In this document: positions 19,607 through 51,883 of the stretch, piece by piece | Layout of the letters: each line of letters starts with the position of its first letter | Numbering within the stretch: position 1 is the stretch's first letter | DNA from: a virus | Length of the DNA stretch: 64,000 nucleotides | Virus record (IMG/VR): IMGVR_UViG_3300045988_097776 | Direction: 5' to 3' (one strand) | Notes under the pieces: generated by a model | What the model saw: only the letters and a program-made list of their open reading frames with translations | What the model was told of the DNA's origin: nothing | Database searches by the model: none | Made by a program: the position numbers and the translations under genes

Positions 19607-19891
19607 TTAATCACTCTCCTTATTATGTGATAATCCAGTTCCTTTGCAAGCTCTACATTTTATATAGTCATTAAGATCGTTTGGATCTGGCCTATCATCT
19701 TCCGCGCAAGATCTAGATCTTAAAACATGACCAGTTCCGTTACAGTACTCACATGCTTGATTAATTTCTCTAAGTTTCTCTAAACTATCAAAATAGGGTT
19801 GTATTCTCTTATTATAATCATCTGCTAATTTTCCTATTTCTTTTTCTATTGCTCTAATAGCAGGTACTAGATTTAAAATCTCTTTACTCAT
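19607..19891 (-). CDS. hypothetical Cys-containing small protein
   Basis: ORF containing CEYCNGTG..CRACKGTG. Confidence 0.45.
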   Translation of the reverse strand: MSKEILNLVPAIRAIEKEIGKLADDYNKRIQPYFDSLEKLREINQACEYCNGTGHVLRSRSCAEDDRPDPNDLNDYIKCRACKGTGLSHNKESD

Positions 19892-27134: not shown

Positions 27135-27413
27135 TTATTCCTCACTTAAATTATATCCAATAAGTTTCATAGAAGGGTTTATCAATCGCAATAATGTTTC
27201 TGCTTCATCTATTACAATCTTATCCTTCATTCCTCTGCTGTGATTTAAATATTCTGAATAATTCATAAATCTAAGTCCAATAATTCCATAACTTTCCGCT
27301 TTACTTCTCATTGAGTGAGGGTTACTACATACGAATATAGCATTATTATCCTTAGCGTATTGCATTAACTGATAAGTTTTTCCAGTGCATCTATCACCAA
27401 TAATTCTAAACAT
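27135..27413 (-). CDS. hypothetical P-loop-like small protein
   Basis: Contains GDRCTGKT. Confidence 0.4.
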   Translation of the reverse strand: MFRIIGDRCTGKTYQLMQYAKDNNAIFVCSNPHSMRSKAESYGIIGLRFMNYSEYLNHSRGMKDKIVIDEAETLLRLINPSMKLIGYNLSEE

Positions 27414-28324: not shown

Positions 28325-28334
28325 AATTAAAAAA

Positions 28335-28360
28335 TCGGGAAGAGTTAAAACTCTTCCCGA
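28335..28360 (-). terminator. rho-independent terminator
   Basis: TCGGGAAGAGTT aaaa CTCTTCCCGA, with an A-run on plus (T-run on minus). Confidence 0.6.
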
Positions 28361-28366
28361 TAGACA

Positions 28367-28663: not shown

Positions 28664-28870
28664 TTATTGTTGTGTTGCTAAATCTTGAACCATAACATCA
28701 ATTTCTAGCAAAATATTTATCCCGTCATTCAATGCCATAATCTAATTAGTGATTTGCATAATTCGATTTTCAGCCCGGGATTTTTCCTCTTTTGAGGAAG
28801 ATTCATTTTGGTGAATTTGCTCACACTAATATAGTTCTTTAGCGAGCTTTTTCATCTATTTTCGGGTCAT
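28664..28870 (-). CDS. small hypothetical protein (3 in-frame TAGs)
   Basis: MTRKQMKKLAKELYQCEQIHQNE. It sits behind a TTGACA, 17-nt spacer, TATTAT promoter. Confidence 0.3.
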
Positions 28871-32694: not shown

Positions 32695-32711
32695 TATTCC
32701 ACCACCATCAT

Positions 32712-35125: not shown

Positions 35126-35152
35126 TAAGAAAAATCAAGCTACAAACAAATA

Positions 35153-35187
35153 AAGGCTTAATGGGATAAATACCCATTAAGCCTTTA
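35153..35187 (-). terminator. terminator hairpin with a 15-bp perfect stem
   Basis: AAAGGCTTAATGGG ataaat ACCCATTAAGCCTTT. Confidence 0.6.
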
Positions 35188-35189
35188 TA

Positions 35190-35531
35190 TTAAATAGGGC
35201 CATCGAGATCAATAGGAATATCATTAGATGCCGAAAAATCTTCTGTCTAAACAGTATATATAGATGCGGAATTAGATTCAATTTCTTTTAAAGCTAAATC
35301 GTAGGTTATTCCACCCTTTTTATGATCTGATTTAGCCATCGTTAGATAGAAGGAGCAAACTATACCATGAGCACTCCATGGTAAACCTATAAGAGCACTA
35401 ATCCATGGCAAAGTCCCCAAATAACCCATATAGACGCACATAAATGCTAAAAGTATTCCTGATATGGTTATAATCCACAATAGCAAGCGAATATCATTTA
35501 TGAGCTTCTTAGAAAATTCTATCTTTTTCAT
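35190..35531 (-). CDS. two-TM small membrane protein, holin candidate (1 in-frame TAG)
   Basis: It lies immediately downstream of the endolysin. ORF 35247..35531 ends at TAG, and read-through to TAA 35190-35192 adds a charged C-terminus. Confidence 0.45.
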
Positions 35532-35532
35532 C

Positions 35533-36408
35533 TTAAAGTCCTAGCTTTTCCGCCAATCTTCTAATCATAGTTACTGTTTCTAATCTAGTACAGAATTTGT
35601 TTGGCATCATTCTTCCAGCGCTGTCGCCGGCCATAATTCCATTTGTCTTAGCCCATTCGAGATTATCGGAACCCCATGTCTCTTTTTCATTAGCTTTATT
35701 GGTTAGCCAAGTATTCATAAGCTCAGCGAATTTTTCATCAGTCATATCTTCATCATCCTCCTAAATATTTGTCATTAGGTTATAAACGTCTGTTCTTGCT
35801 GTTTCCATGCTTTTTCCAAATTTTGGAAACCAATGGTTTACATCTGCATGGTTAGAACCTAATCCTAGTTTATGACTATCAGCATGACATAAAATGGTTG
35901 GAACAGTGATACCATTTAAAGTAGTCGTTCCTAATGGATTTATGTTATACATCTTACATAAATAGGCAGTAATCTAACAAGCTTCTTCATAAATCTTATT
36001 AAAATAGTCTGCATTATTTAAACCATCTTCGCAAATTTCAAACTAAATCCATCCATTATTACAAGAGCCTTTAGTTCCAGAACCACATCCCCAAGGACGA
36101 TAATTCCATGGCATTGTCTATATTGTTGTTACTGTTCCATCTGCTAGCTTGCCAATCCAGCAATTTAGCCCAGCTTGAATAGATACATGATTCCAGTCAT
36201 TTTTACTTGTATTCTTTCCTATTTTACTTATTAAAGTATTATAGTTGGGATCATTATCGCTAGGTTGAACATATCTTTTTAAATTAGGATTATTCGCGCC
36301 TGTACTATGCCATAAAATTCCTTTAACTTGCATAGTGCGTGTCTATTTATAGCAAGTGCTATTAGTCATCATGCATTGAAGTGGTTTATTGCTATCACTA
36401 TATTTCAT
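35533..36408 (-). CDS. endolysin: N-acetylmuramoyl-L-alanine amidase (Amidase_2/PGRP fold) with C-terminal SLH-like domain (4 in-frame TAGs)
   Basis: ORFs 35533..35745, 35761..35952 and 36118..36333 share one frame. Contains GILWHSTGANNP and TILCHADSH...SNHAD. SLH-like C-terminus WAKTNGIMAGDSAGRMMPNKFCTRLETVTMIRRL. RBS GGAGG and ATG at 36406-36408. Confidence 0.65.
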
Positions 36409-36939
36409 TTTATTACCTCCTTCAATTATATTTGAAATATTAGCAAATTTATTATAATACTATTGACCATAACTTGTTCTCTTTTGTTGCATATAAATAC
36501 TCTAATCCGCAGGTTTTTCAAACTAAATCAATACTGCCGTAGATGCTACTTCAACAGAAACGGCAGAAATTAAAATATTAACTAAAGAAGAAAAACTTGT
36601 AACTAACTCCTAATATAAAAAATCTAATTGGGTGTTTAAATCTCCAATAGATCTTCCACGATTTTGACAGAACTAAAGTAGATTTTGTTTTCTGCTCCAG
36701 AATGTCCATTGAGCTAGGCCATAGCCGGCTCCGTCTTTTACAAAGTTTTTATACCTTCCATCATCAACTGCGGAGGTATATCCTGCGTCGGTCATTTTTA
36801 ATTTTTTTTCATAGGTGTTCTATAAGTTAATAGAATTAAGACCACTTTCGGCATAAAGATTACCCATTAAACCGGCAATTCCGCAATCACTAAAACCTTT
36901 GCCTTTAAAATATTTCCAAATAATTTGAGCATTAGTCAT
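36409..36939 (-). CDS. Lyz2-type lysozyme-like domain, in the same frame as the endolysin with no TAA/TGA between (possible three-domain fusion)
   Basis: From ATG 36937-36939: CGIAGLMGNLYAESGLNSINLQNTYEKK...GYGLAQWTFWSRKQNLLQF. Confidence 0.4.
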
Positions 36940-36941
36940 TT

Positions 36942-37796
36942 TTATTTTTTTGTAATGAAAGAGCTATATCCAGCAGATTTTAATTTATCTTTTAGTCTTT
37001 CTGCATTTAATTTCACAGAGAAAGCACCTAATTGAACTTTATAAAAAATTCCTACTTTCTTGACATACCCGCTAAATCCTTTCTCTTCCAATTCCTTTAA
37101 CATATTCTCTGCATTGGTTTTAGATAGAAATGCTCCTACTTGAACTCTGTAAAGAACTACCTCTTGTTCTTTCTTAAAATATACACACATTACATTATCA
37201 ACTGATCTTGCATAAATTTGAGAAGTTTTTCTTTTCCCATCTATTAGTAATCTAGTAGATCCGCCTCCATCTAAATTAATAGCATATTCTACTTTCAATT
37301 CAAGAAAAATTTGCTATAGGGCAGCATAAACAAGACCTGGAGAATCTACGGTTACAATATAATAATTATTTTTATTCCATCCAATACAAGTCCTGCGGGC
37401 TTTATAATCTAATTCTTTTCCATCTGTTATAACTACTTTTTTGCTATCTACAATTAATGCAGGATAAGCTGCGATAAAATCTCTAGCGGTTTCATAATCT
37501 TTTAATGTTGTATATATAAGTGTTTTATTGCCGCTAATTGCAACTCCATGACGAAAATCAGACTAAATAACAGTTCCTTCGTCTTTATAACTAAAGCAGG
37601 TGTTGCCATTATTCATGGCAAAGAAACCTCCATTAGTAATAATATCTGGTTTAGTAGCCTGTCTTTTATAATAAGCATCTGGAGTTTCCGTCGGTTGATT
37701 GCATAAGGCAAAGTCAATTTTTTCAATGTCTGTGAAGGGAATTGTTACAATTTGAACATAAGAATAGAGACTATGTTTTTTGATACTATATCCCAT
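36942..37796 (-). CDS. phosphodiester-glycosidase-like (DUF2233/NAGPA) domain protein with two C-terminal SPOR peptidoglycan-binding repeats
   Basis: ORFs 37563..37796 and 36942..37298 share one frame, joined through TAGs. Contains ITNGGFF and AINLDGGGST, and two YRVQVGAF..NAE repeats. Confidence 0.5.
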
Positions 37797-37849
37797 ACTT
37801 TATCTCCTTTCAATAATAAAACCCAATCTCTAAAGAGATTGGGTTTAAA

Positions 37850-39997: not shown

Positions 39998-40027
39998 TAT
40001 TGGTTAGAGGTCTGATAAATTAATTAT
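39998..40027 (-). terminator. rho-independent terminator
   Basis: AGACCTCTAACC atat TGGTTAGAGGTCT, preceded on plus by an A8 run (a T-run on the minus strand). Confidence 0.65.
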
Positions 40028-40757
40028 TGTTTGGATGTATTATGAAGGTACTCGTTTCTAATAGCAAATCTTTAAGTTCTATATCTTGATAATGCGTATA
40101 TGGAATGCGAATTATTGGGATGTTATTATCGAAGCAATAGTTATTCTTTTCAGTATCTCGAATTTGTTGACTTTCTTTTGTATGAATTTCATTTCCCCAT
40201 TTGCTATCCTAGAAATGCTATTTTCCATCATATTCTATAACATATTTATCCTATATAAAGAAGTCATATCGGAATAATGTACCATAAAAAATTTTTTCTT
40301 TAACAAAAGGAATTTTAGCATCTCGTAGTATTTCTGCAATCTTTTGCTCACCTAGAGATTTTATACATCCACAGCTTTTTGTATTTTCTTGTTGTAAAGA
40401 ATTACCAGACACAATAATGGTATTTCCACAATCGCATTTGCACTTCCAATAACTTTTTGTTGATCCGTTTGGATTTTTCTTAGTGCCATTAAATTCTATC
40501 ACTGTTAATAATCCAAACTTCTATCCAACAAGATTTTTTAAATTATCATGTCCAGTTTTCTTTGCCGCTTCTTTTTGTAAGCATCCACAGCTCTTTTTAT
40601 GGCCAGATTTAAGGTCTGCGCTAGACGCATAAGTTTCATTTCCACAAGAGCATTTACATCTCCAAATAACTCCACCTCTATGATCTCGCTGCTTTGTTTC
40701 TTCCAAGACGGTTAATTGATTAAATTGCTAACCAACTAAATTTATTTTTTTACCCAA
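40020..40757 (-). CDS. putative homing endonuclease: two zinc-ribbon repeats plus C-terminal Vsr/DUF559-like PD-(D/E)xK domain (6 in-frame TAGs)
   Basis: ORFs 40521..40706 and 40251..40502 are joined by TAG. Repeats NLVGQxF..LTV..W(R/K)CKCxCGN..SCGC. C-terminus DFFIQDKYVIEYDGKQHF. TTG start after AGAGGTGA. Stop TAA 40020-40022. Confidence 0.5.
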
Positions 40758-40803
40758 TTCAATCACCTCTAATATTAGTAAATGTTAGAGTAGATAAATT
40801 AAA

Positions 40804-41358
40804 TCAATTTGTAAAATTTTTTATATCATTGATAATGTTGTCTAGTAAAACTGGATAGCTATTATGGGCATCAACTTCACAATGATAAATAATTCCTTTG
40901 TCCATATCAACAAAAGGATTAGTAGTATGAGTATGTCCGCAAAGATTTATAATTTTATTTTTTAGAGGTTTATTTAAATCATCAAGATTACCAGTTAAAG
41001 TGGGGAAATGAGACATATAGAAGTGATATTTCTTGTATTTAAGAGCAATAGCCCAAGCAGTTTCCATCACATTAGGAAGCTTGGCATACATTTTCTTGCG
41101 GCTATCCGTACAGTGGTTTCCAAAAGCAATGTGGAGTTTTCCATTCATAGAGGAAATAAACTCCTTATTTCTCTCAAGACCGTCTGCTCCACCGAGGCAG
41201 AGGTCCCCAAGAACATATACATCATCTTCTGGAGTGACAATAGAGTTATGCCTCTCGATAAGAGCAACATTCATCTCTTCAACAGAGTTGAATCCACGAG
41301 ATTTATAGACAAATTCACGGTCATGCGAGAAGTGCCAATCCGAGGTTACGAAAATCAT
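40804..41358 (-). CDS. calcineurin-like metallophosphoesterase
   Basis: Contains DWHFSHD, GDLCLGG and GNHC. Confidence 0.6.
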   Translation of the reverse strand: MIFVTSDWHFSHDREFVYKSRGFNSVEEMNVALIERHNSIVTPEDDVYVLGDLCLGGADGLERNKEFISSMNGKLHIAFGNHCTDSRKKMYAKLPNVMETAWAIALKYKKYHFYMSHFPTLTGNLDDLNKPLKNKIINLCGHTHTTNPFVDMDKGIIYHCEVDAHNSYPVLLDNIINDIKNFTN

Positions 41359-41888
41359 TTATCTCTCTCCTCCATTCCATGATGATTAATTCTTACTTCT
41401 TTAAATCCGTACTTATAAAGTTTAAATTCTGCGGGAGTGGGAGATCTATAGTTTCTAGCCATCTTCCTAATTGCGGACTCTGGGACTTGAGAAAATCCTT
41501 CTCTCAAGCTATTGCGAGCGATACAGGTATCAATCCCGCAATCGCAAACTTCGAAGACAAGTCTTGTTTTTCCGTCCGGCCGCAGTCTACCCAATAGCTT
41601 TGCTCTTGATCCTTGGGAAATATGAGTTGCGTCAACAAAGACGTAATCAATTCCGATTTCGAGACATTCGTTAATCTGACGGACAAATTCTTCGAATACA
41701 TCATTCTCTTTTCCGAAGTAACTTCCATCACCAACGAAAGATTTTCTTATCTCGTCACGGGAGATAATAGTAGTATGAAAACCATCCATTTCAAGCAACT
41801 CAGCTTCTTTATGCGCCCAAGTAGATTTTCCACTACCGGGGATACCGACCATAACTTTTACTTCAATAGTCATACTGCTTTCCTCCAT
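41355..41888 (-). CDS. P-loop kinase resembling the polynucleotide kinase (Pnk) kinase domain
   Basis: VMVGIPGSGKSTWA. Confidence 0.55.
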   Translation of the reverse strand: MEESSMTIEVKVMVGIPGSGKSTWAHKEAELLEMDGFHTTIISRDEIRKSFVGDGSYFGKENDVFEEFVRQINECLEIGIDYVFVDATHISQGSRAKLLGRLRPDGKTRLVFEVCDCGIDTCIARNSLREGFSQVPESAIRKMARNYRSPTPAEFKLYKYGFKEVRINHHGMEERDK

Positions 41889-41949
41889 TCATTTAACTTT
41901 CTATAAATATTATAATATATTTTTTATAAAATATCAAAAGATTTTTATT

Positions 41950-42795
41950 TTAAATCTCAACTGGTTGAATTAGTTCTTCAATATAAGTCCTACCTTCATC
42001 TTTGAATAGAGGAATATTAAGGTCAATAAACCAATAGTGTTTAAAATGAATTGAGCCATCTTCTCTTTCCGTTTCTTCGCAGTCTTTTATACAACAAGAA
42101 CCTCTCTTCAAATAGGTCGGTAGACTATTCCAATCTATCCCCTTTTTGGAAATAAGCATCTCTAAAATTTCACTACTGCACTTACCCTGAAGTTCACTAT
42201 GAGAAAAATTTGCTTGACCAACCATTTGAATAGAATTGCGAATGGCATCTAACTGTCGCCAGTAAATGAGATTTGTTACCTCTTCTTTTGGGATATTAAA
42301 AACACGTGCATCAAACATAGCACCTTTTGCGCTTGCCATCCGTAAAGTTTTCATATATTCTTGATGTTTCTGTCGGATTTCTACACTTTGCGGAGTTAGA
42401 GAACACTTCCAATCAACTTCGTATGCTTCAATCGCTCGATGAAAAGCTTTATTAAAAGCCATTGTCGCCATAGATGCTGCAACAGAGCACATCTTTTGAA
42501 CTTCGTAGTCAAACCACGCTTCACTATTTAATTTCTTGTAATCAACAAGAATTAGAGTTATTTCATCACTTTGTGTATATCCAAGAACACATCCTTGAAT
42601 ATTTCTGCACAAATACTCTGTAGTTTCTTGCATAGCTTCAACTAACACTTCGTCAAATGGTTTTTTAAATCCTTTAGTGAAGGTATGAAATGCTTTTCCA
42701 TCAATTCTAATTGCTACTGGAGTTCTGCGCATGAGGTGAGTTTTAGGTACCTGTTCATAAAACTCCTTCATACGAGTACCAAGTTGGTCATTCAT
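41950..42795 (-). CDS. Thg1-like protein (tRNA-His guanylyltransferase family; 3'-5' nucleotide addition / tRNA 5'-end repair)
   Basis: AIRIDGKAFHTFTKGFKKPFD resembles the Thg1 VVRLDGRNFHRF core. Likely starts at the internal ATG 42793-42795 after GGAGGA. Confidence 0.55.
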   Translation of the reverse strand: MNDQLGTRMKEFYEQVPKTHLMRRTPVAIRIDGKAFHTFTKGFKKPFDEVLVEAMQETTEYLCRNIQGCVLGYTQSDEITLILVDYKKLNSEAWFDYEVQKMCSVAASMATMAFNKAFHRAIEAYEVDWKCSLTPQSVEIRQKHQEYMKTLRMASAKGAMFDARVFNIPKEEVTNLIYWRQLDAIRNSIQMVGQANFSHSELQGKCSSEILEMLISKKGIDWNSLPTYLKRGSCCIKDCEETEREDGSIHFKHYWFIDLNIPLFKDEGRTYIEELIQPVEI

Positions 42796-43522
42796 ACTGT
42801 TTATCCTCCATATCAACCATAAAAATATGCTCGTCAAAGGTATCGAGATTTAAGAGAACGGTTTGTCCAGTAAAGAAACTGCCACAATCAATATTTACCT
42901 TATGGTCATTGCAGTACCAAAAAGCACCCTCAACATAAGAGTCTTCTCTCGCTCCAAAGAAATTTTTTAGACTTCCTCTATAGCCTCTAATCATACCGGG
43001 GATAGGAGTATGTCCATGAACACAGATAGTATTATTTTCATAGTAAGTATCCCAAATATGTTCTCTATCCCAGATTAAATCTCTTGTATTTGGATTAGAA
43101 CCTGCTGTAAGCCCTGCATGACAAAGAGCTATTTTAACATCGTCTTTATTGCAGTATTCCATATAAGTAGGTAACTTACTTAAATAATTACACCAATCAG
43201 GGTTCGCACCATCACTTATCCAACCTTCAAAGGTGTCTTTCCCTCCATTAAAACAAAGCAAAGCATAATCTCTGTCGAAACATTCATACTTCGCATATTC
43301 TCTCATTGCATTGACAAGCATATCTTCGTGATTACCCTTGATGTAGATAAATTGCGGATCTGCGGCAACTGCTTTAATGGTTTCCCAAGGATCAGGTCCC
43401 CGATCGCCGCAATCGCCCAGGCAATAAACTTTATCTTCTGGTTTTAAAAATTTCTTTACCTCTTGATAAAGACATAACATACCATGAAGATCACTAATAG
43501 CGTATACGCTCACTTTAATCAC
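42788..43522 (-). CDS. metallophosphatase (calcineurin-like Ser/Thr or polynucleotide phosphatase)
   Basis: ISDLHG, GDCGDRG and GNHE. Confidence 0.6.
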   Translation of the reverse strand: MIKVSVYAISDLHGMLCLYQEVKKFLKPEDKVYCLGDCGDRGPDPWETIKAVAADPQFIYIKGNHEDMLVNAMREYAKYECFDRDYALLCFNGGKDTFEGWISDGANPDWCNYLSKLPTYMEYCNKDDVKIALCHAGLTAGSNPNTRDLIWDREHIWDTYYENNTICVHGHTPIPGMIRGYRGSLKNFFGAREDSYVEGAFWYCNDHKVNIDCGSFFTGQTVLLNLDTFDEHIFMVDMEDKQYE

Positions 43523-43555: not shown

Positions 43556-43586
43556 AAAATAAAGAGAGCGTAAAGCTCTCTTTATT
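43556..43586 (-). terminator. rho-independent terminator
   Basis: AAATAAAGAGAGC gtaa GCTCTCTTTATTT. Confidence 0.6.
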
Positions 43587-44308
43587 TAAAAGAAGGGGCA
43601 GATTGGCATTTCCTCTGTTTTATGTAGGTTTCTCTTGTGTCTCTGCTCAATATTTTTATATACTTCATACGGAGGAGTAATACGATATAGCAAAAAGTTA
43701 TCAAGAGTTTTATAAGAAAAACCTAGATTCTCTTCATCTGAGAGTCCAGTTAATCCATCTTCTGGAACTTTTTCTATAAATTTCTCCGGTAGACCAAGTT
43801 CTAAACCAATCTCTTTAACTTCTGTTACTGTGTAATTGTGCAGAATTGAAAAATCTCCCGCGGAATCACCAAATTTGGTTGAATAACCAACATAATTTTC
43901 ACTTCTATTACAAGTGTTTGCAACTCTACCATGTCGAGCAGCCGCGATGGCATAAAGAATATTCATTCTTTCTCTTGCTGGAACGTTACTTACAACTTGA
44001 GGAAGATTACGAATATCAGAGGGTAGGGAGAAAAAAGTTGCTTTGCAAGCCTCTCCAATGTTGATATTATAATGTTCTTTAATGCCTAGATACTCAATAA
44101 CTTCATTTGAAATATCAATGTCTGATTGATACCCTTGTGGCATTTGAACTGCAATTACATTTTCTGGCCCAATAGCTTTACAAAGCAGTGCGGCAGCGAC
44201 AGTAGAATCTTTTCCTCCAGAAATACCAATAACAGCTTTGCAGTCCGGGCCGTTGTCGATAAAATATTTTTTAATCCAGTTAATGATTCTTTGAACTCTT
44301 ATTGTCAT
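43586..44308 (-). CDS. nadE: NH3-dependent NAD+ synthetase (PP-loop ATPase)
   Basis: Contains IGISGGKDS. Confidence 0.7.
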   Translation of the reverse strand: MTIRVQRIINWIKKYFIDNGPDCKAVIGISGGKDSTVAAALLCKAIGPENVIAVQMPQGYQSDIDISNEVIEYLGIKEHYNINIGEACKATFFSLPSDIRNLPQVVSNVPARERMNILYAIAAARHGRVANTCNRSENYVGYSTKFGDSAGDFSILHNYTVTEVKEIGLELGLPEKFIEKVPEDGLTGLSDEENLGFSYKTLDNFLLYRITPPYEVYKNIEQRHKRNLHKTEEMPICPFF

Positions 44309-44313
44309 AAGAT

Positions 44314-45903
44314 TTACTCTCCCATCAGTCGATTCTTAATTGTATAAAAATCTTCCTCGTTTTCGCGTACAAAAACACCATCTTTTACTTTGAATTTCAT
44401 TACATTATCCTTATATTCGATGGCTTCTTTAAGAGTAAGATTTTCAACAAGCCTATATTGGCCCTCTGAGTCTTTAACAACCGCTACGCATCCACGAGGA
44501 GATTTTTTCCCAGGATCGGTTTTTGGCATCTTGTAGATTTGGATTTCATCTTCTCCAAGAATACAATCGGTAGCCTTAATTGCATAGCCTCTAGTGTCAC
44601 GAGTTACATATTGATAAGTATATGCGCCAATTCCAAAACAGATATTTGATACTGAAATAGAATTATTGACACACCAATTACATATTTTTTCAGTGATCTC
44701 GGGAGTGATCGCATCGCCATAAATAACACGAATACAAGAGGGAAGCTCAAAATAACCCTTTCTATTAAGGTTGCCGCCAAAAGTATCAAAGAGACTGACA
44801 AGAGTTCCTTTACCCTCCGGGGAGTCAGGATCAACAGCAAAACTTGTGTCCCCGCAAATGATTTTTACTGGATCTCCGCTATCGGGGCGGATGGAAAGGC
44901 ATCCATCCCGCTGCTCGATAATGTCTCTCAATGCAGGAACAATTTTAGATACTACACCCCAATAATCATATGTATCTGCTACATAAGTCATTGTCCCAGT
45001 AGGCTGAATATTGATAAGAAGATGGCGCAGGAAGAGCATCTCAGCAATAAGATTAACTTCCCAATTTTCAGAGAGGCAAGTATTGAGTAGAGCTTGCTCC
45101 TCGGCTTCTAGCTCACCATTGAACATCTGCGCTCTTTTCCATGCTACACCCTGTTCAACAACAGAGTGCTCCAGAGATGGAGTTCCCATTAGAGGAGGAT
45201 TATTCTCTAAATCTGCTCCATAATATTTCTCCAAAAGAAGATTAGAACCAATGGTCGCAGTCCTATCAAAAGACAAAGCGTGCGCGGCGCCAGAGATATA
45301 GCCCGCTTCAAGTGAAGTGTGACCGCGGAGAGAGAAGTCACCGCACATATGAGGGAGAGCAGACATATCGTCACAGGTCATCTTAACATAAGGCTCGATT
45401 AGCTTACGTCGATAGAAGGCTGTCGTGGCAGAAGTAGAAGGAAGCCAGTTATTTGCACTCCACTGATCTTCAATAAACTGCGGAAGCCATGCAAATTCAG
45501 GATCAGTAGAAAAGATAACATGATCTGGAATACCGATAGGAAGAAGTGTACCTTCGGGAACTCCCATAATTGAAATGGGAAGATAGCCAAGCTCATAAAG
45601 TTTCCTAAACTTGCTGAAATCTGCATAGCCAGGATGGAAAGTATCCTTGATTACCCTGTTCCACTCGCTTTCAAGCAGATCAATGGGCTGATTAAAAAAT
45701 TCTGCCTGCCAGTAATTAAGCAGTCGCTGGATGGTATATTGATGGCCAAACACCATAGTTTTGGCGCAGTCTTTATGATATTTATTGCTGCGAGCAGTCC
45801 AAGTAGAATACACCATCTTTGCGTCGGCAGGCTGCATTTTAACCGCATGACCAATCTTATAATAGTCTGCCGCAAACATAGGTGCTACATCAAAGAAACT
45901 CAT
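44314..45903 (-). CDS. nicotinamide/nicotinate phosphoribosyltransferase (NAMPT/NadV family)
   Basis: 529 aa with ADYYKIGH near the N-terminus (compare DSYKVTH in NAMPT). Confidence 0.7.
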   Translation of the reverse strand: MSFFDVAPMFAADYYKIGHAVKMQPADAKMVYSTWTARSNKYHKDCAKTMVFGHQYTIQRLLNYWQAEFFNQPIDLLESEWNRVIKDTFHPGYADFSKFRKLYELGYLPISIMGVPEGTLLPIGIPDHVIFSTDPEFAWLPQFIEDQWSANNWLPSTSATTAFYRRKLIEPYVKMTCDDMSALPHMCGDFSLRGHTSLEAGYISGAAHALSFDRTATIGSNLLLEKYYGADLENNPPLMGTPSLEHSVVEQGVAWKRAQMFNGELEAEEQALLNTCLSENWEVNLIAEMLFLRHLLINIQPTGTMTYVADTYDYWGVVSKIVPALRDIIEQRDGCLSIRPDSGDPVKIICGDTSFAVDPDSPEGKGTLVSLFDTFGGNLNRKGYFELPSCIRVIYGDAITPEITEKICNWCVNNSISVSNICFGIGAYTYQYVTRDTRGYAIKATDCILGEDEIQIYKMPKTDPGKKSPRGCVAVVKDSEGQYRLVENLTLKEAIEYKDNVMKFKVKDGVFVRENEEDFYTIKNRLMGE

Positions 45904-45924
45904 AAAATCTTCCTTTCCTTATTT

Positions 45925-45950
45925 CTTTATTATATTATAACATATATTTT
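45925..45950 (-). promoter_or_regulatory. conserved promoter motif variant (extended -10, TGTTATAAT)
   Basis: Minus-strand ATATGTTATAATATAATAAAG. Confidence 0.45.
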
Positions 45951-45957
45951 TATAAAA

Positions 45958-45985
45958 ATAAAAAGCTCTCATAAGAGAGCTTTTT
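45958..45985 (-). terminator. rho-independent terminator
   Basis: AAAAAGCTCTC ataa GAGAGCTTTTT. Confidence 0.65.
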
Positions 45986-45986
45986 A

Positions 45987-46355
45987 TCAATTTTGAAGCA
46001 AGCTGAATAATGCTTCAATTCCTACGTATTCTGGCGCAATAATGCAAGTAATAATTGGAACACAAACTGTAATAATGACTGAAAGTATGGGCACGAATGT
46101 AAGAATGTGCAGGTGCCATTTTTTAAAATCGACTTCAATCATTAGATATAGTATAAACCATATAATACTAGAAATAATAGCACCTATAAAAACCCCAACA
46201 AAAATGTTAAATCCTAAATCTTTAACGGTTACGTACCAGCCATATTTAGCCAACCACATTGGAGCATTTTCCATAATAGTTTGAGTGGTTACTCCAAAAA
46301 AGTTAGCAAGAGACTGTAAAATAGAAGCCAACGTCTGCTCTAAAGTCAAACTCAT
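45987..46355 (-). CDS. polytopic membrane protein
   Basis: Several hydrophobic helices. Confidence 0.5.
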   Translation of the reverse strand: MSLTLEQTLASILQSLANFFGVTTQTIMENAPMWLAKYGWYVTVKDLGFNIFVGVFIGAIISSIIWFILYLMIEVDFKKWHLHILTFVPILSVIITVCVPIITCIIAPEYVGIEALFSLLQN

Positions 46356-46801
46356 TTTAGAATCTCCCCAACAACAGTGCTTACAATTTTCATATCAGCT
46401 TTACCTTTGAGTGCCGCAGAAACATACTTCATAATCGCACCTCGGTTTGCTTTAAGGAGATCTATACCTGCGGCAGCTGCGATTTCTCTTACTCTTGTTT
46501 CAATCTCTGTTTTATCTGTAAGCAGCTGTGGAGCACACATTTTTACGATTTTCATATCCTCTTGATATTGATGCAACTTCTCAGAATAGTTAGCGGGGCA
46601 GGTATCAATCATTTCTTGCACAGTTTTTTGATACTTAATAAGAGTTTCATCAATTAACTGCTCTGTTAGTTCCACTCTTCCCTTCGGAGTAATTGTTGCT
46701 TTCTGACACGAATCAATCATGTCAGAAAGCACTCTCTTTGTATTTACGTCTCCATTTTTAAGAGCTGCAATTTTTAGTGCTTGAAGCTTTTCAATAGTCA
46801 T
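46352..46801 (-). CDS. GatB/YqeY-domain protein
   Basis: ALKNGDVNTKRVLSDMIDSCQKA matches the YqeY pattern. Confidence 0.45.
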   Translation of the reverse strand: MTIEKLQALKIAALKNGDVNTKRVLSDMIDSCQKATITPKGRVELTEQLIDETLIKYQKTVQEMIDTCPANYSEKLHQYQEDMKIVKMCAPQLLTDKTEIETRVREIAAAAGIDLLKANRGAIMKYVSAALKGKADMKIVSTVVGEILK

Positions 46802-47610
46802 CGAACAATTTCTACCTTTCCTCTAGTATCCCACTCAGGCTTAAAGATGCTATCAGTGGTAAAGATTTTCTTTACAATATCCTGATTATACATATCACCT
46901 TCAACCATAGTATGTTCTGCATGAGTGACGTAAAGATAAATATTTTTTGCTCCTGCTTCTTTTAGAGCGTTTGCCGCGTGATAGAAAGTTCCTCCCCGAG
47001 AGCAAATATCGTCTACAATTAGAACACCCTTATCTTTAACCAACTCACCATTCATTAGTTGTAGACCAAGAATTTTTCCAGTAGACCAATCCCTCTTTTT
47101 AATTCCAAAGGCGTATGGAAGATTAATTGCTGGAGTGGAATATCTCTTCATAGCTCCCTCGTCCGGGAAAAATAGAACGGGAGTTTCTTTTTCATAATGC
47201 TCAAAAAGTTTGATAGCCTCTTTGATTTCTCCAATAGGAGTAAGATCAATTACCCTATCGAGCAGAGCTAATGCTACATTAGAATGAGCATCTCTTACAA
47301 TGACTTTATCGAAGTGAAGACCATTGATTACTTGACAGAAATATTTAAGGGTAAACACATCTTCAAGTTCTTGCACTCTATCCATTCTTGCATGAGGAAT
47401 ATATGGCATATCGAGCCTCAAGGGACAATCTTTAAAGTGTCCCTTTACGCAAATTAGAGTGAACAGTTCTGCATCGTTCTCATACTCCCAAAGAACGGTA
47501 TCGTAATCAAAATAATTGGGCGGCATATTAATATGCAGCGTTCCATCGGGAAAATGATTTTGCTCAATTACATCTGTCCAATGACTGCGCGTGTTAATCA
47601 GACTAATCAT
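46798..47610 (-). CDS. prs: ribose-phosphate pyrophosphokinase (PRPP synthetase)-like
   Basis: PRPP-binding VLIVDDICSRGGT. Confidence 0.65.
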   Translation of the reverse strand: MISLINTRSHWTDVIEQNHFPDGTLHINMPPNYFDYDTVLWEYENDAELFTLICVKGHFKDCPLRLDMPYIPHARMDRVQELEDVFTLKYFCQVINGLHFDKVIVRDAHSNVALALLDRVIDLTPIGEIKEAIKLFEHYEKETPVLFFPDEGAMKRYSTPAINLPYAFGIKKRDWSTGKILGLQLMNGELVKDKGVLIVDDICSRGGTFYHAANALKEAGAKNIYLYVTHAEHTMVEGDMYNQDIVKKIFTTDSIFKPEWDTRGKVEIVR

Positions 47611-47613
47611 TTC

Positions 47614-48153
47614 TTAATCCTCCACATCAATCTGTTGAGCTTTGAAAATAGTTAGCGCTGCCTCATGCGATTCTGGAGTTACTCCTGCGCACGCACTAGA
47701 ATGAACGATAATTCTAGTATTTGGCAACGCTGCACGAAGCATAACCGCGTTAGCCATAACGCAGATATCGGTACAAAATCCGCAGATATGAATTTCTACT
47801 TCCTCTGGATTCTTCATCTTTAGAGAATCATATACCTCATTAACCATATCGGTACTGCCAAAGGTGTCTTTTTCATAATAATTAAACTTGTTATTCAACG
47901 CAATCACGACTCTGGAATCCATACACCAGCCCACGCTTGCCTTAATACAATGTTTAACAGGAAGTTTCTTTCCTTCCAAAGTATCGAAGTAATCGTCATC
48001 ATGGGTATCCATGGTACAAATAATTTCTTCCCAACAGAATCGTTTAATTAGATCAACAATATTAGGAACTGCGGCATCCGCCTCCTTTGTACCTAGCGCC
48101 CTAGTGATGAAATCATTTTGAGCATCAACAATTATAAGTATCTTTCTATACAT
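47614..48153 (-). CDS. isochorismatase-family hydrolase, nicotinamidase (PncA)-like
   Basis: ILIIVDAQNDF, a Cys in ICGFCTDIC, and 179 aa. Confidence 0.65.
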   Translation of the reverse strand: MYRKILIIVDAQNDFITRALGTKEADAAVPNIVDLIKRFCWEEIICTMDTHDDDYFDTLEGKKLPVKHCIKASVGWCMDSRVVIALNNKFNYYEKDTFGSTDMVNEVYDSLKMKNPEEVEIHICGFCTDICVMANAVMLRAALPNTRIIVHSSACAGVTPESHEAALTIFKAQQIDVED

Positions 48154-48172
48154 TTTGTTATACTCCTTTTCC

Positions 48173-48195
48173 TTTATATAAATATTATATCATAT
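48173..48195 (-). promoter_or_regulatory. conserved phage promoter motif (extended -10, TGATATAAT)
   Basis: Minus-strand TATGATATAATATTTATATAAAG. Confidence 0.5.
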
Positions 48196-48209
48196 TTTAT
48201 TAAAAAATT

Positions 48210-48235
48210 AAAGGAGAGATATGACTCTCCTTTAA
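48210..48235 (-). terminator. rho-independent terminator
   Basis: AAAGGAGAG atatgac TCTCCTTT. Confidence 0.6.
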
Positions 48236-48236
48236 T

Positions 48237-49100
48237 TCAAGATTTAACGAGAAATTTTTCATCCGTTAGCAGCTCTAAGGTTATTGTATCTCTATATTCG
48301 TATGGAATACGATATAAAGGAATATTGTGAGATAGGCAATATTTATTTTTTTCCTAGTCTCTTTGCATTAAAGCGTCTACTTTTTCTTTAGTATAATATC
48401 CACTTACTTGACCTTCATGCTATGGACCATCGAACTCTACTACATACTTATTGTCTATGTAAAAATCAAATTTACATTTTTGATTTGGATAATCCTGTGG
48501 CGTCCATTGAGAAATAAAGGGTATATTTGCTTCTTGCAAGATCCGTTTTATTCTAGCTTCTCCTTTTGAGATTATACAACCACAAGACTAGGTATTCCCA
48601 GAAGTTAAATTTTGTCTTTTTACAATCGTGATATTTCCACAGTCGCACTAGCATTTACAACACCAAGTATCATTTTCTTTAAATTGTTCTAACACAATTA
48701 AATTTCCATATCTGCTTCCTATAATAGGATTACGAATCTAATTTTTAAATAAATGTCCACAAGAAAGAGATTTTCCACTCTTTAATGATGGGGCATATAC
48801 TTCTCTTTTTACTCCACAAGAACATTCACATAGCCAGTAGCTCTCTTTCTCTGCTTTTGATAATACTGTCCATTCCCCAAATTTCTGTCCTGTTAAATCA
48901 ACAAATTTTTTAGATGGCTCTCTCTTTTTACATCCGCATGAGGTAGTATGCCCACTTCTTAAATTTTCTGCGCGGACGGGGATTATATTACCACAGTCAC
49001 ACTAACATTCCCAAATAGTTCTACGACCTTGATTTGGTAATCTACGTAAAGCAGTTAATTTTCCAAACTTTTGACCAGTTAAATCTAATGCTTTTGGCAT
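48237..49100 (-). CDS. putative homing endonuclease: three zinc-ribbon repeats plus Vsr/DUF559-like domain (about 9 in-frame TAGs); paralogue of 40020..40757
   Basis: From ATG 49098-49100: LTGQKFGKLTALRRL..WECQCDCGN..SCGC (three repeats), then KFDFYIDNKYVVEFDGPQHEG. Stop TGA 48237-48239. No standard-code ORF was called. Confidence 0.5.
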
Positions 49101-49194
49101 AAAAATCATCTCCTTTTATTGTCTACATTATATAAGAAATAAAAGGAGATGATTTAATCATTTTACCCTCTTTTTTTTTAAATTTGTGGGTAAA

Positions 49195-49989
49195 TTACAT
49201 TTCCGCAAGAATATCTTCAGAAATATTACTAGAATTTACGCTCTCTGTAGCAATCCCAGAAATAACTTTAAATTCAAAGGTTTTTGACTTGAAAGCAGTA
49301 AAGGTGCGCCGATTTACAATTCGGATAACTACTCCTTCCTTAACATGGGTGCGGCCGATCGGATCCGCAAGATCCTCGAAGTATTTATTGATGCGCTCCT
49401 GAAGATCCTCAACAGTAGTAAATGTAAAGTTCTCAATTACAGGAACGCGATTAAAACCATGCCAATCGCACCAGGCAGTGATTTCGTCAGGAGTCCACTC
49501 TCTCTCTCCGTTTTCAGAGGTAATGCGATAGATATACATTTTGCTCTGACCGGGTTCACAGCCATAAGAGAAAATAGACCGTTTACCAAACTGCTTTACA
49601 AAAGCCTTGTCATTGACCTTAGTATTATCACCAATAGGCATAATAGTATTCTCTTCATTGGGCCCATAGTAGCCTACTACTTCGTAAAAAACTTCCATAC
49701 CTAGCTCAAGGTGAGGTTTTAGAGCTTCATGGTGAGGCATACGGAACTGATCGTTTCCATAGTATCCCTGAGAGTTTTCAGTTACTACGCAACGGCGAGT
49801 TCCAAGAACATAAGCCTGCTTAGTACGCTTCTTCATATGGAAAAGGCGACGGAAGAAACCATTAGGAAGCTCTGCATAAGTATTCATAGAACGCTGAGAG
49901 GTGCCATGCATTTTGAGGGTCATGTTCAGTCTATCGCCTTCACGGAACTTATCAAAGTTATATGCAAGCTGCTCAGTATCAGTGTGCAT
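49195..49989 (-). CDS. RNA ligase, Rnl2 family
   Basis: Motif I KMHGTS (compare T4 Rnl2 KIHGTN). Confidence 0.6.
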   Translation of the reverse strand: MHTDTEQLAYNFDKFREGDRLNMTLKMHGTSQRSMNTYAELPNGFFRRLFHMKKRTKQAYVLGTRRCVVTENSQGYYGNDQFRMPHHEALKPHLELGMEVFYEVVGYYGPNEENTIMPIGDNTKVNDKAFVKQFGKRSIFSYGCEPGQSKMYIYRITSENGEREWTPDEITAWCDWHGFNRVPVIENFTFTTVEDLQERINKYFEDLADPIGRTHVKEGVVIRIVNRRTFTAFKSKTFEFKVISGIATESVNSSNISEDILAEM

Positions 49990-50013
49990 AGAGAACTCAG
50001 GATAAGTAATCCC

Positions 50014-50469
50014 CTCAGCTTTGCGTCCTTTGTAAGAAGTTTTTACTCCATAAGTAGAATTGCTCTTTCGCTTAGGAATATACTTACGGCAAAACTCCTT
50101 GTCATTGATAGTAGTTACTTTATCTCCGTCACTCCAATGCTAGTCACCAAACTTTTCATAGACTCGATCAAGAGCAATGACAATACCAGAAGACTGGTTG
50201 CCGCGGAGCTTAATAGCCCGCACATGGCCGTTATTTTCAAGGTATCCACCCTGAACAGATCCATCCTCATTCTTGCGGAAAAGGCAAAACTCATTGCCAA
50301 ACCAACGCTCAATTTCTCCATCGGTGGGCAGATAGAGCACCAGATCTCCGGTCTTCATGTCAGGGCCTACGATTACGCCCTCACTAAAACAATCCGCCAG
50401 ATATAGCCGATCGGAATTCGGATCTTTCCGCACGTTCTGAATCTTAGTCACCAGACCAAAATAAGCCAT
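50014..50469 (-). CDS. hypothetical protein (1 in-frame TAG)
   Basis: ORF 50140..50469 ends at TAG and continues in frame to TGA 50014-50016. Confidence 0.4.
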
Positions 50470-50485
50470 CTTTCATGCCTCCTCA

Positions 50486-50773
50486 TTACATAAAAATCTT
50501 AAATATATCTGAATTAATTAGTCGAGAAAGAGGTACAAAAGCTATACCTGTATCTTCCTTTTGCTTAGCATCTACATCTTCTGGAGTTCGATCAGGGATA
50601 ATTCCAATAAGGAAATCACTATCCATTTTGATAACATACTTGATTGTTCCTGCCAAGAGCAAGCCATCATATGAACCGAATGTGACCAGTTTATTCAGGA
50701 TACCTTCATCTATCATAAAAGTATCCATATCTCCGTAATAACCACCCATGTTATCGTACTCCTTTCTTACCAT
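50486..50773 (-). CDS. hypothetical protein
   Basis: ORF. Confidence 0.45.
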   Translation of the reverse strand: MVRKEYDNMGGYYGDMDTFMIDEGILNKLVTFGSYDGLLLAGTIKYVIKMDSDFLIGIIPDRTPEDVDAKQKEDTGIAFVPLSRLINSDIFKIFM

Positions 50774-51105
50774 TCATAATATCTATCATGATCAGGATCT
50801 TCTTCTATGGTAGTTGCTAAATAGGACAACCAACCTTCAACTTCTTCCATATACATATCCCAGATTTCTTCATAGTCAGATTCAGTTAGTTCATCATGTG
50901 ATAACCCATTGTCTTTCAAATATTGCTCAAGAATATCTTCTTCAGAAGTTAGCCCATGACAACCTTCATAAGATTGATATTCTTCAATAGCAAGTTGCCT
51001 CGCGGCTTCCAGAGCTTCATCTTTAGAATTATACTCCTCAGTACAATGATATTGGTAACCACCAAATCCACCGCTCAAGCCTGCATATAAGTTGTATAAT
51101 TCCAT
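50767..51105 (-). CDS. acidic hypothetical protein
   Basis: ORF. Confidence 0.45.
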   Translation of the reverse strand: MELYNLYAGLSGGFGGYQYHCTEEYNSKDEALEAARQLAIEEYQSYEGCHGLTSEEDILEQYLKDNGLSHDELTESDYEEIWDMYMEEVEGWLSYLATTIEEDPDHDRYYEW

Positions 51106-51107
51106 CT

Positions 51108-51359
51108 TTACTCCTTATAGTTTTGAAATTCCATAGTTATTGGAAGAACTTTATGTTTTTGCTCAAACTAGTCCCAAATCACTTCTTCTCTTGATACTAC
51201 TACTTTCATAGGCTACTTCTAAGAAGCAATTTGCTGAACTATCTAAATGAATTGAGCTTCAATAAAAGGTCTAGGAGCTTGCATTCTCCACTACTCAATA
51301 ACCTAATTACCTAGATAAATAGTGAAGATAACATCAAAGGTGTCCTCAATAAACATCAT
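51108..51359 (-). CDS. hypothetical protein, very TAG-dense (7 TAGs in 83 codons)
   Basis: ATGATG start at 51354-51359, ending at TAA 51108-51110 just before gene 50767..51105. Reads MMFIEDTFDVIFTIYLGNQVIEQWRMQ. Confidence 0.4.
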
Positions 51360-51624
51360 ATCCCTGCCTCCTCATCACGGCCAATGATTTATATACCATC
51401 TTACCAAGACTCTTACTCTTTGCTTTTGTTACGTTTCCCATTTCAATCAAATGGCCGAGTAGTCTTGCAATCTTTTGAGTAGAAAGTCCTGTAAGAGTAA
51501 TTGATCTTGCTTGAATTTCTTCAATAGTTAATGCCTCTTCACTTTCCGCAAGAATGATCATAACCTCTCCCTGAAGAAGGGCGTTTTGATCCTTCGTAAA
51601 CTTAGAAGTTCTACGACCAGGCAT
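51346..51624 (-). CDS. hypothetical protein (possible HTH)
   Basis: ORF. ATG at 51622-51624 preferred over the GTG. Confidence 0.5.
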   Translation of the reverse strand: MPGRRTSKFTKDQNALLQGEVMIILAESEEALTIEEIQARSITLTGLSTQKIARLLGHLIEMGNVTKAKSKSLGKMVYKSLAVMRRQGYDVY

Positions 51625-51626
51625 AT

Positions 51627-51797
51627 TCACTCTACCTCCTTATAAGAAACAACTCTGATATTTTCAAGTTTCTCGGTATAGGAAGTTTTTCCATTGTAGA
51701 TAACTGCGATCCTATTCTTTCGATCAACACCAACTACCTTGCCCTCTCGACCATTAAGAGTCTTTACGATTGTTCCTTCGCATACATAAGGCATCAT
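51627..51797 (-). CDS. small hypothetical protein (56 aa)
   Basis: MMPYVCEGTIVKTLNGREGKVVGVDRKN. Lies between the promoter motif and gene 51624. Confidence 0.35.
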   Translation of the reverse strand: MMPYVCEGTIVKTLNGREGKVVGVDRKNRIAVIYNGKTSYTEKLENIRVVSYKEVE

Positions 51798-51819
51798 ATA
51801 AATTACTTCCTTTCCTTAA

Positions 51820-51843
51820 CTTTCTATATATATTATATCATAA
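51820..51843 (-). promoter_or_regulatory. conserved phage promoter motif (extended -10, TGATATAAT)
   Basis: Minus-strand TTATGATATAATATATATAGAAAG. Confidence 0.5.
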
Positions 51844-51856
51844 AAAAATAAAAAAA

Positions 51857-51883
51857 TAAAGGAGGGCTTAAAGCTCCTCCTTT
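51857..51883 (-). terminator. rho-independent terminator
   Basis: AAAGGAGGGC ttaa AGCTCCTCCTTT. Confidence 0.6.

Follow-up and report, generated by a model that had tools for sequence, protein, structure and literature searches.

Glutamine-coding TAG codons divide the genes of a large Firmicutes-type phage into two classes, a pattern consistent with translational gating

In the IMG/VR virus record IMGVR_UViG_3300045988_097776, of which a stretch of 64,000 nucleotides was analysed (hereafter the window), the codon TAG is read as glutamine (genetic code 15) and the genes fall largely into two classes: one from which TAG is completely excluded, and one in which it encodes about half of all glutamines. 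The second class includes a small gene on the minus strand (51108-51359, in the following the flagged gene), which an earlier annotation made from the letters alone (the first-pass annotation) had singled out for its TAG density. The class of a gene is retained in diverged relatives while individual TAG sites turn over. On balance we lean towards a model already published for other recoded phages, in which TAG-free genes are those needed before TAG suppression works, while TAG-bearing genes would be gated until then.

TAG is read as glutamine

Under code 11, open reading frames (ORFs) of at least 100 amino acids account for 68% of the window, and with TAG as a sense codon for 89%. The gene list used here was compiled with TAG as sense, with overlapping ORFs resolved by codon-usage score; it comprises 19,797 codons in 81 genes. 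At 46777-48330, long ORFs of the plus strand were rejected as genes, being artefacts over TAG-free phosphoribosyltransferase and isochorismatase genes of the minus strand. In total, 130 in-frame TAGs were found in the 81 genes, which end in TAA (61) or TGA (20), counts obtained with an ORF caller that barred TAG as a stop and with a few TAGs lying 6-19 codons before a gene end.

All six TAGs of the flagged gene align to CAA or CAG in orthologues from IMG/VR contigs that share 80-85% amino acid identity and lack TAG, from which it follows that TAG stands for glutamine and that the gene is genuine. Its frame contains no internal TAA or TGA, compared with 1-8 in the other five frames. The protein belongs to a family with 41 members in a large protein collection, has an invariant IWDQFEQK motif, whose glutamine is a TAG in the window, and yields a confident AlphaFold model (pLDDT 91). 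Similarly, TAGs of the RecJ-like exonuclease (SPbeta YorK) and of DnaB (SPbeta YorI) lie at conserved glutamine sites of the SPbeta proteins, and a relative of 65% identity has CAA or CAG opposite 7 of the 13 RecJ TAGs. In RecJ, the endolysin, the GIY-YIG gene, RuvC and the resolvase, the domain matches extend across the TAGs.

ARAGORN predicts four tRNAs in the window, all confirmed by Rfam, one of which carries the anticodon CTA and is thus a suppressor tRNA (Table 1). Its position 1 is unpaired (U1/U72), and it has G73 and an encoded CCA; U1 and G73 are presumably tRNA-Gln features. It is conserved in a related IMG/VR locus (L087; loci are given L numbers below) and homologous to the suppressor tRNAs of L087 and of phage phAss-1, the latter with a Gln isotype call (Babkin et al. 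2023, PMC10607447). The phage thus probably decodes TAG as glutamine via its own tRNA(CUA), in a host that presumably reads the standard genetic code. The promoter upstream of this tRNA is the best in the window (12/12 consensus positions, extended -10), and its 29 nt are identical in L087 and L108 despite diverged flanks. No release factor or aminoacyl-tRNA synthetase was found in the 64-kb window. Some suppressor tRNAs are abutted by HDV-like theta ribozymes (Kienbeck 2024, PMC10879173); around the present one (58900-61300), no Rfam ribozyme family matched at the gathering threshold or at E <= 1, although the presence of theta ribozymes in Rfam was not checked.

A YqeY/GatB-like protein (PF09424; 46352-46834, minus strand) is 84% conserved in close relatives. 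Its sole TAG, at codon 3-4 like that of 6549-6854, probably lies upstream of the true start, as does the latter. GatB-type tail domains bind tRNA-Gln, and it is a speculative idea that this protein could help to charge or amidate the suppressor tRNA.

Two classes of genes

The first-pass annotation had claimed strong gene-to-gene variation in TAG density, and the statistics bear this out. The per-codon chi2 amounts to 455, whereas multinomial simulations (n = 20,000) give a mean of 80 and a maximum of 157, and 46 genes lack TAG where 25.6 +/- 3.2 are expected; per glutamine codon, chi2 is 240 (74 degrees of freedom, p = 2e-19). The distribution is near bimodal, with 46 TAG-free genes, 17 TAG-rich genes and 18 intermediate ones holding 1-3 TAGs each, of which a few probably precede the true start of the gene. 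Glutamine is encoded by 202 CAA, 102 CAG and no TAG in the free class, and by 105 TAG, 99 CAA and 14 CAG in the rich class (TAG about 48%). Even at the window-wide TAG share, the chance of finding none among the 304 glutamines of the free class is below 1e-25. A crude reversible-mutation estimate from four-fold sites of the rich genes gives a neutral expectation of.50:.12:.37 for CAA:CAG:TAG, compared with.45:.06:.48 observed there. Rich genes are near, or slightly over, the TAG share of an unconstrained synonymous codon, and the strong signal is the complete exclusion of TAG from the free class.

Free of TAG, or nearly so, are NrdD, Pol III (1), DnaB (2), primase, the SSB-like protein, Sak4 (2), ligase, GyrA/B, RNase H and PhoH, as well as every RNA-repair and NAD gene and the vault-like and DUF2828 genes. 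Of the 17 rich genes, 9 have nuclease, recombinase or lysis functions, as against 4 of the 46 free ones (Fisher p = 4e-4, for a grouping made post hoc). The class switches gene by gene, as in three abutting genes at 17045-19891 with 0, 13 and 0 TAGs. Two paralogous Zn-ribbon HNH endonuclease genes on the minus strand, both patchily distributed in relatives, are TAG-poor (16335-16934, one TAG; 24369-24854, none), while RecJ and RuvC are TAG-rich, so that the split is not simply one of core versus accessory genes, nor of replication versus late genes.

The contrast drawn in the first-pass annotation, between TAG-poor core replication genes and far richer small accessory genes, accordingly holds only in part. 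It is right for Pol III, whose single TAG in 1300 codons was recovered by recounting, for gyrase, ligase, primase and NrdD, and for some small genes, but RecJ and RuvC belong to the replication module, large core genes are rich as well (RecJ-like 13, endolysin 11) and many small ORFs have no TAG. The densities it reported for 27413-28324 (10 in 303 codons) and for the GIY-YIG gene (7 in 221) were reproduced, as was the richness of the serine recombinase (7 in 210); in the flagged gene, credited with seven TAGs in 83 codons, there are six, the seventh stop being the TAA terminator. Plus-strand genes, likewise described as TAG-rich, are so only at 58-690, 1268-1693 and 1706-1939 but not at 1965-4245 (0-1 TAG).

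Along genes, TAGs show a mild 5' skew (29, 30, 31, 22 and 18 per successive fifth of gene length), and a context check of the window's TAGs found no striking preference for the +4 base. Five TAGs inside 14 codons (27780-27830, minus strand; ADLqAKqLSYIqAKqRqEE, with q for TAG) lie in the coiled-coil part of the membrane-anchored GIY-YIG protein (TM-GIY-YIG), and close relatives keep two of the five.

The class of a gene is conserved while its TAG sites turn over

Relatives were collected by scanning IMG/VR with RecJ, GyrB, RNA ligase, the flagged protein and a tail-fibre protein, which yielded more than 100 loci. The gene-level TAG pattern is conserved over about 50 recoded IMG/VR relatives and in the distant phAss-1. 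For example, RecJ orthologues carry 13 TAGs in the group of 97-100% identity, 5 in a group of 65% identity, 7 in one of 49% identity and 4 in phAss-1. The TM-GIY-YIG orthologue has 10, 8, 6, 5 and 8 TAGs in recoded lineages down to 35-40% amino acid identity (phAss-1: 8), and endolysin orthologues have 2-11 in 22 recoded relatives. Averaged over 47 recoded loci, TAG makes up 2.9% of codons in TM-GIY-YIG (44 relatives), 1.1% in the endolysin and 1.6% in the membrane protein beside it, compared with 0.00-0.02% in GyrA, GyrB, ligase and the SSB-like protein (46-47 recoded relatives for GyrA/GyrB); gyrase, ligase, SSB, primase and Pol III all stay near zero in the 47 relatives and in phAss-1. Individual sites are mostly unshared between lineages (of the 13 in RecJ, two are common at 65% identity), and it is therefore the gene-level state, not particular codons, that is maintained.

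A sister lineage of about 50% amino acid identity (L009-L013 and L017-L022; contigs of 120-195 kb from IMG/VR 3300045988) is practically devoid of TAG in its replication module, whether as an in-frame codon or as a stop (0-2 of about 21 ORFs), and its RecJ has none. A single 'TAG' in its DnaB proved to be an artefact of an upstream TTG start picked by the ORF caller. This lineage resembles the TAG-depleted state that Borges et al. proposed to precede recoding. Its RecJ is no more AT3-biased than primase, PhoH and ligase, three genes without TAG in the recoded lineages; weak codon bias is by itself no predictor of the TAG class.

Walking upstream of the tail-fibre genes in relatives met tRNA arrays and did not reach the main structural module. 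That structural genes are TAG-rich rests on the tail-fibre genes of the window, on the first 50 kb of phAss-1 (coding coverage 0.58 with code 11 vs 0.96 with TAG as sense) and on the report of Babkin et al. on virion genes.

Stepwise gain of TAG in the flagged gene

The number of TAGs in the flagged gene rises among its orthologues from none in five diverged relatives (outgroups included) to 2 in L122, 2 at other sites in L125 and L126, 4 in L120, 5 in L121 and 6 in the window, which is 97.4% identical to L120 over 1.4 kb. The flanking genes have no TAG in any of the relatives compared. Two sites display all three codons, namely CAA in diverged relatives, CAG in the nearest ones (one site in L120 and L121, the other in L120 and L122) and TAG in the window. 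Relative to IMG/VR contig 3300045988_084596, the share of identical codons in the flagged gene (0.57) lies within that of its neighbours (0.53-0.65), so its synonymous divergence equals theirs, and the TAGs thus arose in place and were not imported. Of the conserved glutamine pairs with this contig, 6 of 11 are TAG/CAA in the flagged gene, whereas about 2 of 113 differ by a TAG in the surrounding genes (p = 3e-6). Positive selection for TAG was considered and not adopted, since the substitution density against L120 is the same as in the neighbours (9/252 vs 11/339 and 10/285), a comparison with no power to separate selection from drift.

Gating and its alternatives

The total exclusion of TAG from the free genes points to a phase in which TAG decoding would be absent or poor and in which these genes must work. 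The first-pass annotation had mentioned a proposal that such skew times expression to the availability of suppressor tRNA, and this is indeed a published proposal (Borges et al., bioRxiv 10.1101/2021.08.26.457843). Under this model suppression would rise over time, and the genes needed before it becomes effective (replication, nucleotide metabolism, RNA repair, NAD salvage) would be kept strictly TAG-free by purifying selection, while the remaining ones would be free, or favoured, to carry TAG at about the frequency of an unconstrained glutamine codon. If the amount of full-length product scales as the suppression efficiency raised to the number of TAGs, the output of genes with 5-13 TAGs would depend very steeply on suppressor activity, and these genes would stay silent in translation until the suppressor tRNA builds up, even when co-transcribed with TAG-free neighbours. 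Most of the gated set (endolysin, holin, DNA nucleases, resolvases, homing endonucleases, recombinase, tail fibres) would be useless or dangerous early in infection or in a repressed prophage. When temporal class is assigned from gene function, the window appears to combine enrichment of TAG in genes for lysis and structure (11 in the endolysin, 2 in the holin, 2-5 in the tail-fibre genes) with its depletion from early ones (gyrase, ligase, primase and NrdD, each 0), RecJ and RuvC being exceptions. Also consistent with timing are the retention of class in diverged relatives and the location of rich genes inside sigma-A operons or just behind their terminators.

Such gating would have to be translational and act per gene, because only 3 nt separate RecJ from the TAG-free gene on either side, and the flagged gene and its upstream neighbour share 14 nt; the stop of the flagged gene falls inside the ribosome-binding region of the next gene. 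Strong intrinsic terminators directly before three TAG-rich units (the GIY-YIG and RuvC pair, TM-GIY-YIG and 1268-1693) and the bracketing of the lysis cassette by terminators hint at a possible second, transcriptional layer acting via terminator read-through. Intergenic sigma-A-like promoters of the minus strand, identified as pattern matches, precede mostly TAG-free genes, and promoter-like sites overall show no excess over shuffled sequence. More tentatively, the number of TAGs might constitute an evolvable per-gene threshold of translation layered over host-type transcription. A few changes from CAA over CAG to TAG would then shift single genes of a sigma-A operon between 'immediate' and 'delayed' with promoters unchanged, and the flagged gene, with 0, 2, 4, 5 or 6 TAGs among relatives up to 97% identical and none in its neighbours, would have been caught in the middle of such a shift.

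Several observations weigh against gating. The strongest predicted promoter of the window would drive the suppressor tRNA, so that suppression may be available very early. Genuine TAGs, one or two each, occur in Pol III, DnaB, Sak4 and the helicase; replication therefore needs some suppression, and there is no clean early/late boundary. Nor is it a rule that hazardous enzymes are locked, because the two Zn-ribbon HNH genes are TAG-poor and RNase H and the PIN-PhoH gene are TAG-free. Across genes, there is a correlation between TAG fraction and general AT3 codon usage (rho = -0.4, p = 0.003), as expected under a pure efficiency model, and likewise between TAG fraction and low GC3 and low use of AAG and GAG (rho about -0.4). 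Finally, the flagged orthologue of L101 (3001-3261, IMG/VR contig 3300045988_081499), a locus that is otherwise recoded, contains two in-frame TAA/TGA stops at positions that are glutamine elsewhere; it is apparently a pseudogene, unless the stops are sequencing errors, and the gene would then be dispensable in L101, which fits relaxed constraint as well as regulation.

These codon-usage correlations are what one would expect if TAG were simply a costly glutamine codon, contested between the phage tRNA and release factor 1, that is purged where output matters and drifts elsewhere with no role in timing. Such an explanation from efficiency and relaxed selection, which we consider possible but doubtful, would also account for the closeness of the TAG share in rich genes (0.48) to the crude neutral value (0.37), for the mobile or accessory nature of many rich genes, for the turnover of sites, and for a flagged gene that gains TAGs stepwise, as under drift, and is pseudogenised in one relative. 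It is weakened, however, by the endolysin, RecJ and RuvC, essential and family-wide genes that are consistently TAG-rich in independent lineages, and by primase, PhoH and ligase, which have an equally weak codon bias and remain at exactly zero. At 11-13 TAGs, an essential protein would be lost if each of these codons had any appreciable cost; at some stage, therefore, suppression has to be efficient, and the total avoidance of TAG elsewhere is then hard to explain without a phase of poor suppression.

Gene history offers another account, in which rich genes are imports from fully recoded phages and free genes recent imports from phages with the standard code. The HNH gene 16335-16934 is 74% identical to copies of the TAG-free lineage while its flanking genes reach 48-62%, which suggests a recent transfer between lineages; homing-endonuclease-like genes are patchily distributed, and the genomes are mosaic (against one and the same contig, identity is 98-100% around RecJ and 77-89% around 41-59 kb). 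History thus contributes for some mobile genes, but it fails for RecJ, RuvC and TM-GIY-YIG, syntenic core genes common to SPbeta, VRE9_4 and phAss-1, and for the flagged gene, which is as divergent at synonymous sites as its TAG-free neighbours and accumulated its TAGs in place through CAA, CAG and TAG intermediates; as an explanation of the whole pattern it seems unlikely. An artefact, by which the TAG-rich ORFs would be no genes or be read in a wrong frame and TAG would still be a stop, is the least probable of all and is excluded for the feature genes listed in Table 1. Spurious ORFs do exist (those of the plus strand at 46777-48330, ORFs over tRNA genes, N-terminal extensions with TAG), but full-length Pfam/PHROG domain matches span the TAGs, conserved orthologues have glutamine at TAG sites, the rich ORFs are devoid of in-frame TAA/TGA and score like other genes in codon usage, and a cognate suppressor tRNA is present.

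Comparison with other recoded phages

Descriptions of this pattern exist for other recoded phages, and the window adds a further case to a timing model published for other clades. In the gut phages with code 15 studied by Borges et al. (published in 2022), recoding preferentially affects lysis genes and an intron homing endonuclease, suppressor tRNAs are phage-encoded and most replication genes keep the standard code. As in these phages, TAG means glutamine in the window, a tRNA(CUA) is encoded and the timing hypothesis applies; the most recoded genes include lysis genes and a homing endonuclease, most replication genes are standard, and the share of genes with in-frame TAG (43%) falls within the 26-71% per clade of their survey. 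Unlike there, rich genes of the window are scattered singly in TAG-free operons and do not form modules, and two nucleases of the replication module (RecJ, RuvC) are among the richest. CrAss-like phages with a block-wise dual code (Mgcod, bioRxiv 10.1101/2022.06.29.495998) likewise mix standard-code genes and TAG-read-through genes in one genome. A block-wise dual code was rejected for the window, where no contiguous blocks occur and TAG-rich genes are singly interspersed among TAG-free ones.

Restraint of nuclease translation by other means is known from phage T4, where translation of the homing endonuclease I-TevI is held to late infection by an RNA structure that hides the ribosome-binding site. 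In both cases nuclease genes in early units or behind terminators would be kept from early translation, in the window by the proposed block of in-frame TAGs.

Also comparable is phAss-1 of the proposed Phassvirus (Babkin et al. 2023; GenBank OQ749652), a human-gut-type phage of about 130-150 kb with code 15 in a wider group related to EF1/PMBT10. Its virion genes and 'several DNA-processing enzymes' contain TAG, and the recoding of orthologues differs between species. It has NrdD/G, ThyX, Pol III alpha, RecJ, gyrase, NAPRTase and a homologous suppressor tRNA in common with the window; in both, RecJ and TM-GIY-YIG are rich in TAG and gyrase and ligase have none, and Pol III is free of it in phAss-1 and nearly so in the window. 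The window has one suppressor tRNA as against two or three in the phAss-1 group. Assignment to Phassvirus is ruled out by amino acid identities of 25-65% and by the lack of a megablast or blastn match in a collection that includes OQ749652.

When TAG is read as sense, phAss-1 contains a single 231-codon ORF with three TAGs (OQ749652 91348-92043; L095:41348-42043) that extends across two genes annotated in GenBank. It matches the window proteins 51346-51630 (75% identity) and 50767-51105 (39%), which raises the question of whether TAG is a leaky stop there or the proteins are fused.

For this phage family, new elements are the statistics for two gene classes, the conservation of class with turnover of sites, the TAG-free sister lineage, the stepwise CAA, CAG, TAG series in one gene, and the promoter and terminator context. 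With a TAG-free sister lineage, several recoded lineages and one gene changing stepwise, the family represents a natural experiment on the conversion of a stop into a sense codon gene by gene. If the threshold idea holds, TAG count would be a simple, adjustable means of delay open to imitation in synthetic biology; should it be wrong, the data would nonetheless quantify the selection that keeps a newly reassigned codon out of some genes. For annotation, standard-code gene calling breaks up about a fifth of the coding sequence of the window, and the endolysin, RecJ, RuvC, the nucleases and the tail fibres become visible only under code 15.

Gene content of the window

The window (G+C 32-43%, nearly all genes on the minus strand) is a piece of a large phage of gut and Firmicutes type that is distantly SPbeta/EF1/phAss-1-like, and according to Pfam and PHROG scans it spans a large-phage replication and auxiliary region. 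Genes of replication and nucleotide metabolism encode NrdD/NrdG, guanylate kinase, Pol III alpha, a UvrD-like helicase, the RecJ-like exonuclease, a primase-like protein, DnaB, Sak4, ThyX, an ATP-dependent ligase, GyrA/GyrB and RNase H. These are accompanied by the lysis cassette, PhoH, tail-fibre-like proteins, RNA-repair genes (Thg1, kinase, phosphatases, RNA ligase, RlaP, cREC), NAD salvage genes, a major-vault-protein-like gene and a DUF2828 protein; no terminase was found within the 64 kb. SPbeta YorL and polymerases of Enterococcus phages share about 40% identity with Pol III alpha, and synteny with SPbeta and Enterococcus phages extends over Sak4, DnaB, YorJ, RecJ ... Pol III, guanylate kinase, dUTPase and resolvase. 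The lineage has many relatives in IMG/VR and no close GenBank phage record; megablast and blastn against INPHARED returned no DNA-level relative among GenBank phages, where kinship is confined to the protein level (SPbeta, Enterococcus VRE9/EF1, phAss-1). Kinship with SPbeta and Enterococcus phages, together with the sigma-A promoters, suggests a host among the Firmicutes. Coordinates of the features discussed are given in Table 1.

Table 1. Features of the window, with numbers of in-frame TAG codons
Feature	Position	Strand	TAG codons and remarks
Flagged gene	51108-51359	-	6 TAG in 83 codons (7.2%), TAA stop; small conserved protein in RNA-repair operon
Endolysin (Phage_lysozyme2 + Amidase_2)	35533-36939	-	11 TAG in 468 codons
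Lysis cassette with endolysin	35190-37796	-	terminators 37819-37846 and 35150-35188 on either side
RecJ-like DHH exonuclease (SPbeta YorK orthologue)	17852-19603	-	13 TAG in 583 codons; 3 nt from TAG-free neighbours
TM-GIY-YIG (membrane-anchored coiled-coil protein, C-terminal GIY-YIG nuclease domain)	27413-28324	-	10 TAG in 303 codons; directly behind terminator 28334-28361
GIY-YIG homing-endonuclease-like gene	5242-5907	-	7 TAG; directly behind terminator 5913-5951
RuvC-like resolvase	4767-5321	-	8 TAG; paired with GIY-YIG gene
Serine recombinase	58-690	+	7 TAG
Holin	742-1131	+	2 TAG
Small Q-rich gene	1268-1693	+	9 TAG
Small Q-rich gene	1706-1939	+	5 TAG
HNH/homing-endonuclease-family gene	40020-40766	-	5 TAG; patchy in relatives
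HNH/homing-endonuclease paralogue of 40020-40766	48237-49109	-	6 TAG; patchy in relatives
Tail-fibre-like gene, Mtd_N domain	62907-63473	-	5 TAG
Tail-fibre-like gene	63482-63739	-	2 TAG
Small ORF	28664-28870		3 TAG; in rich list
Guanylate kinase, ThyX, NrdG			2-3 TAG each; in rich list
Pol III alpha (SPbeta YorL orthologue)	11213-15115	-	1 TAG in 1300 codons; exemplar of TAG-poor class
GyrA + GyrB	30331-34601	-	0 TAG in 1416 codons; exemplars of TAG-free class
Suppressor tRNA, anticodon CUA	60031-60105	-	ARAGORN; Rfam tRNA 61.6 bits; cloverleaf fold
Perfect sigma-70/sigma-A consensus promoter (TTGACA-17-TATAAT with TG)	60549-60577	-	upstream of ORF 60198-60536 and suppressor tRNA

The RNA/tRNA-repair set in the middle of which the flagged gene sits (40804-43522 and 49195-53531, minus strand) is otherwise entirely TAG-free and consists of two metallophosphatases, a P-loop kinase (AAA_33), a Thg1-like tRNA-His guanylyltransferase, an RNA ligase, an RlaP-like nucleotidyltransferase and a cREC_REC domain protein. 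Likewise free of TAG is the cluster for NAD salvage and synthesis (43586-48153, minus strand; NAD synthase, NAPRTase-family protein, phosphoribosyltransferase and an isochorismatase/nicotinamidase-like protein), to which phAss-1 has similar genes. Downstream of the tRNA cluster, between strong terminators, a vault-like gene (811 aa, Vault repeats and MVP shoulder) adjoins a gene for a DUF2828/DUF7788 protein (507 aa; 54671-59009, minus strand); the pair is TAG-free, about 80-85% conserved in relatives, and looks like part of the RNA-damage-response gene sets of the literature. Finally, a second protein with a Phage_lysozyme2 domain and an N-terminal signal or transmembrane segment is encoded directly downstream of RecJ (17045-17848, minus strand); unlike the endolysin, it is TAG-free and lies in the replication module.

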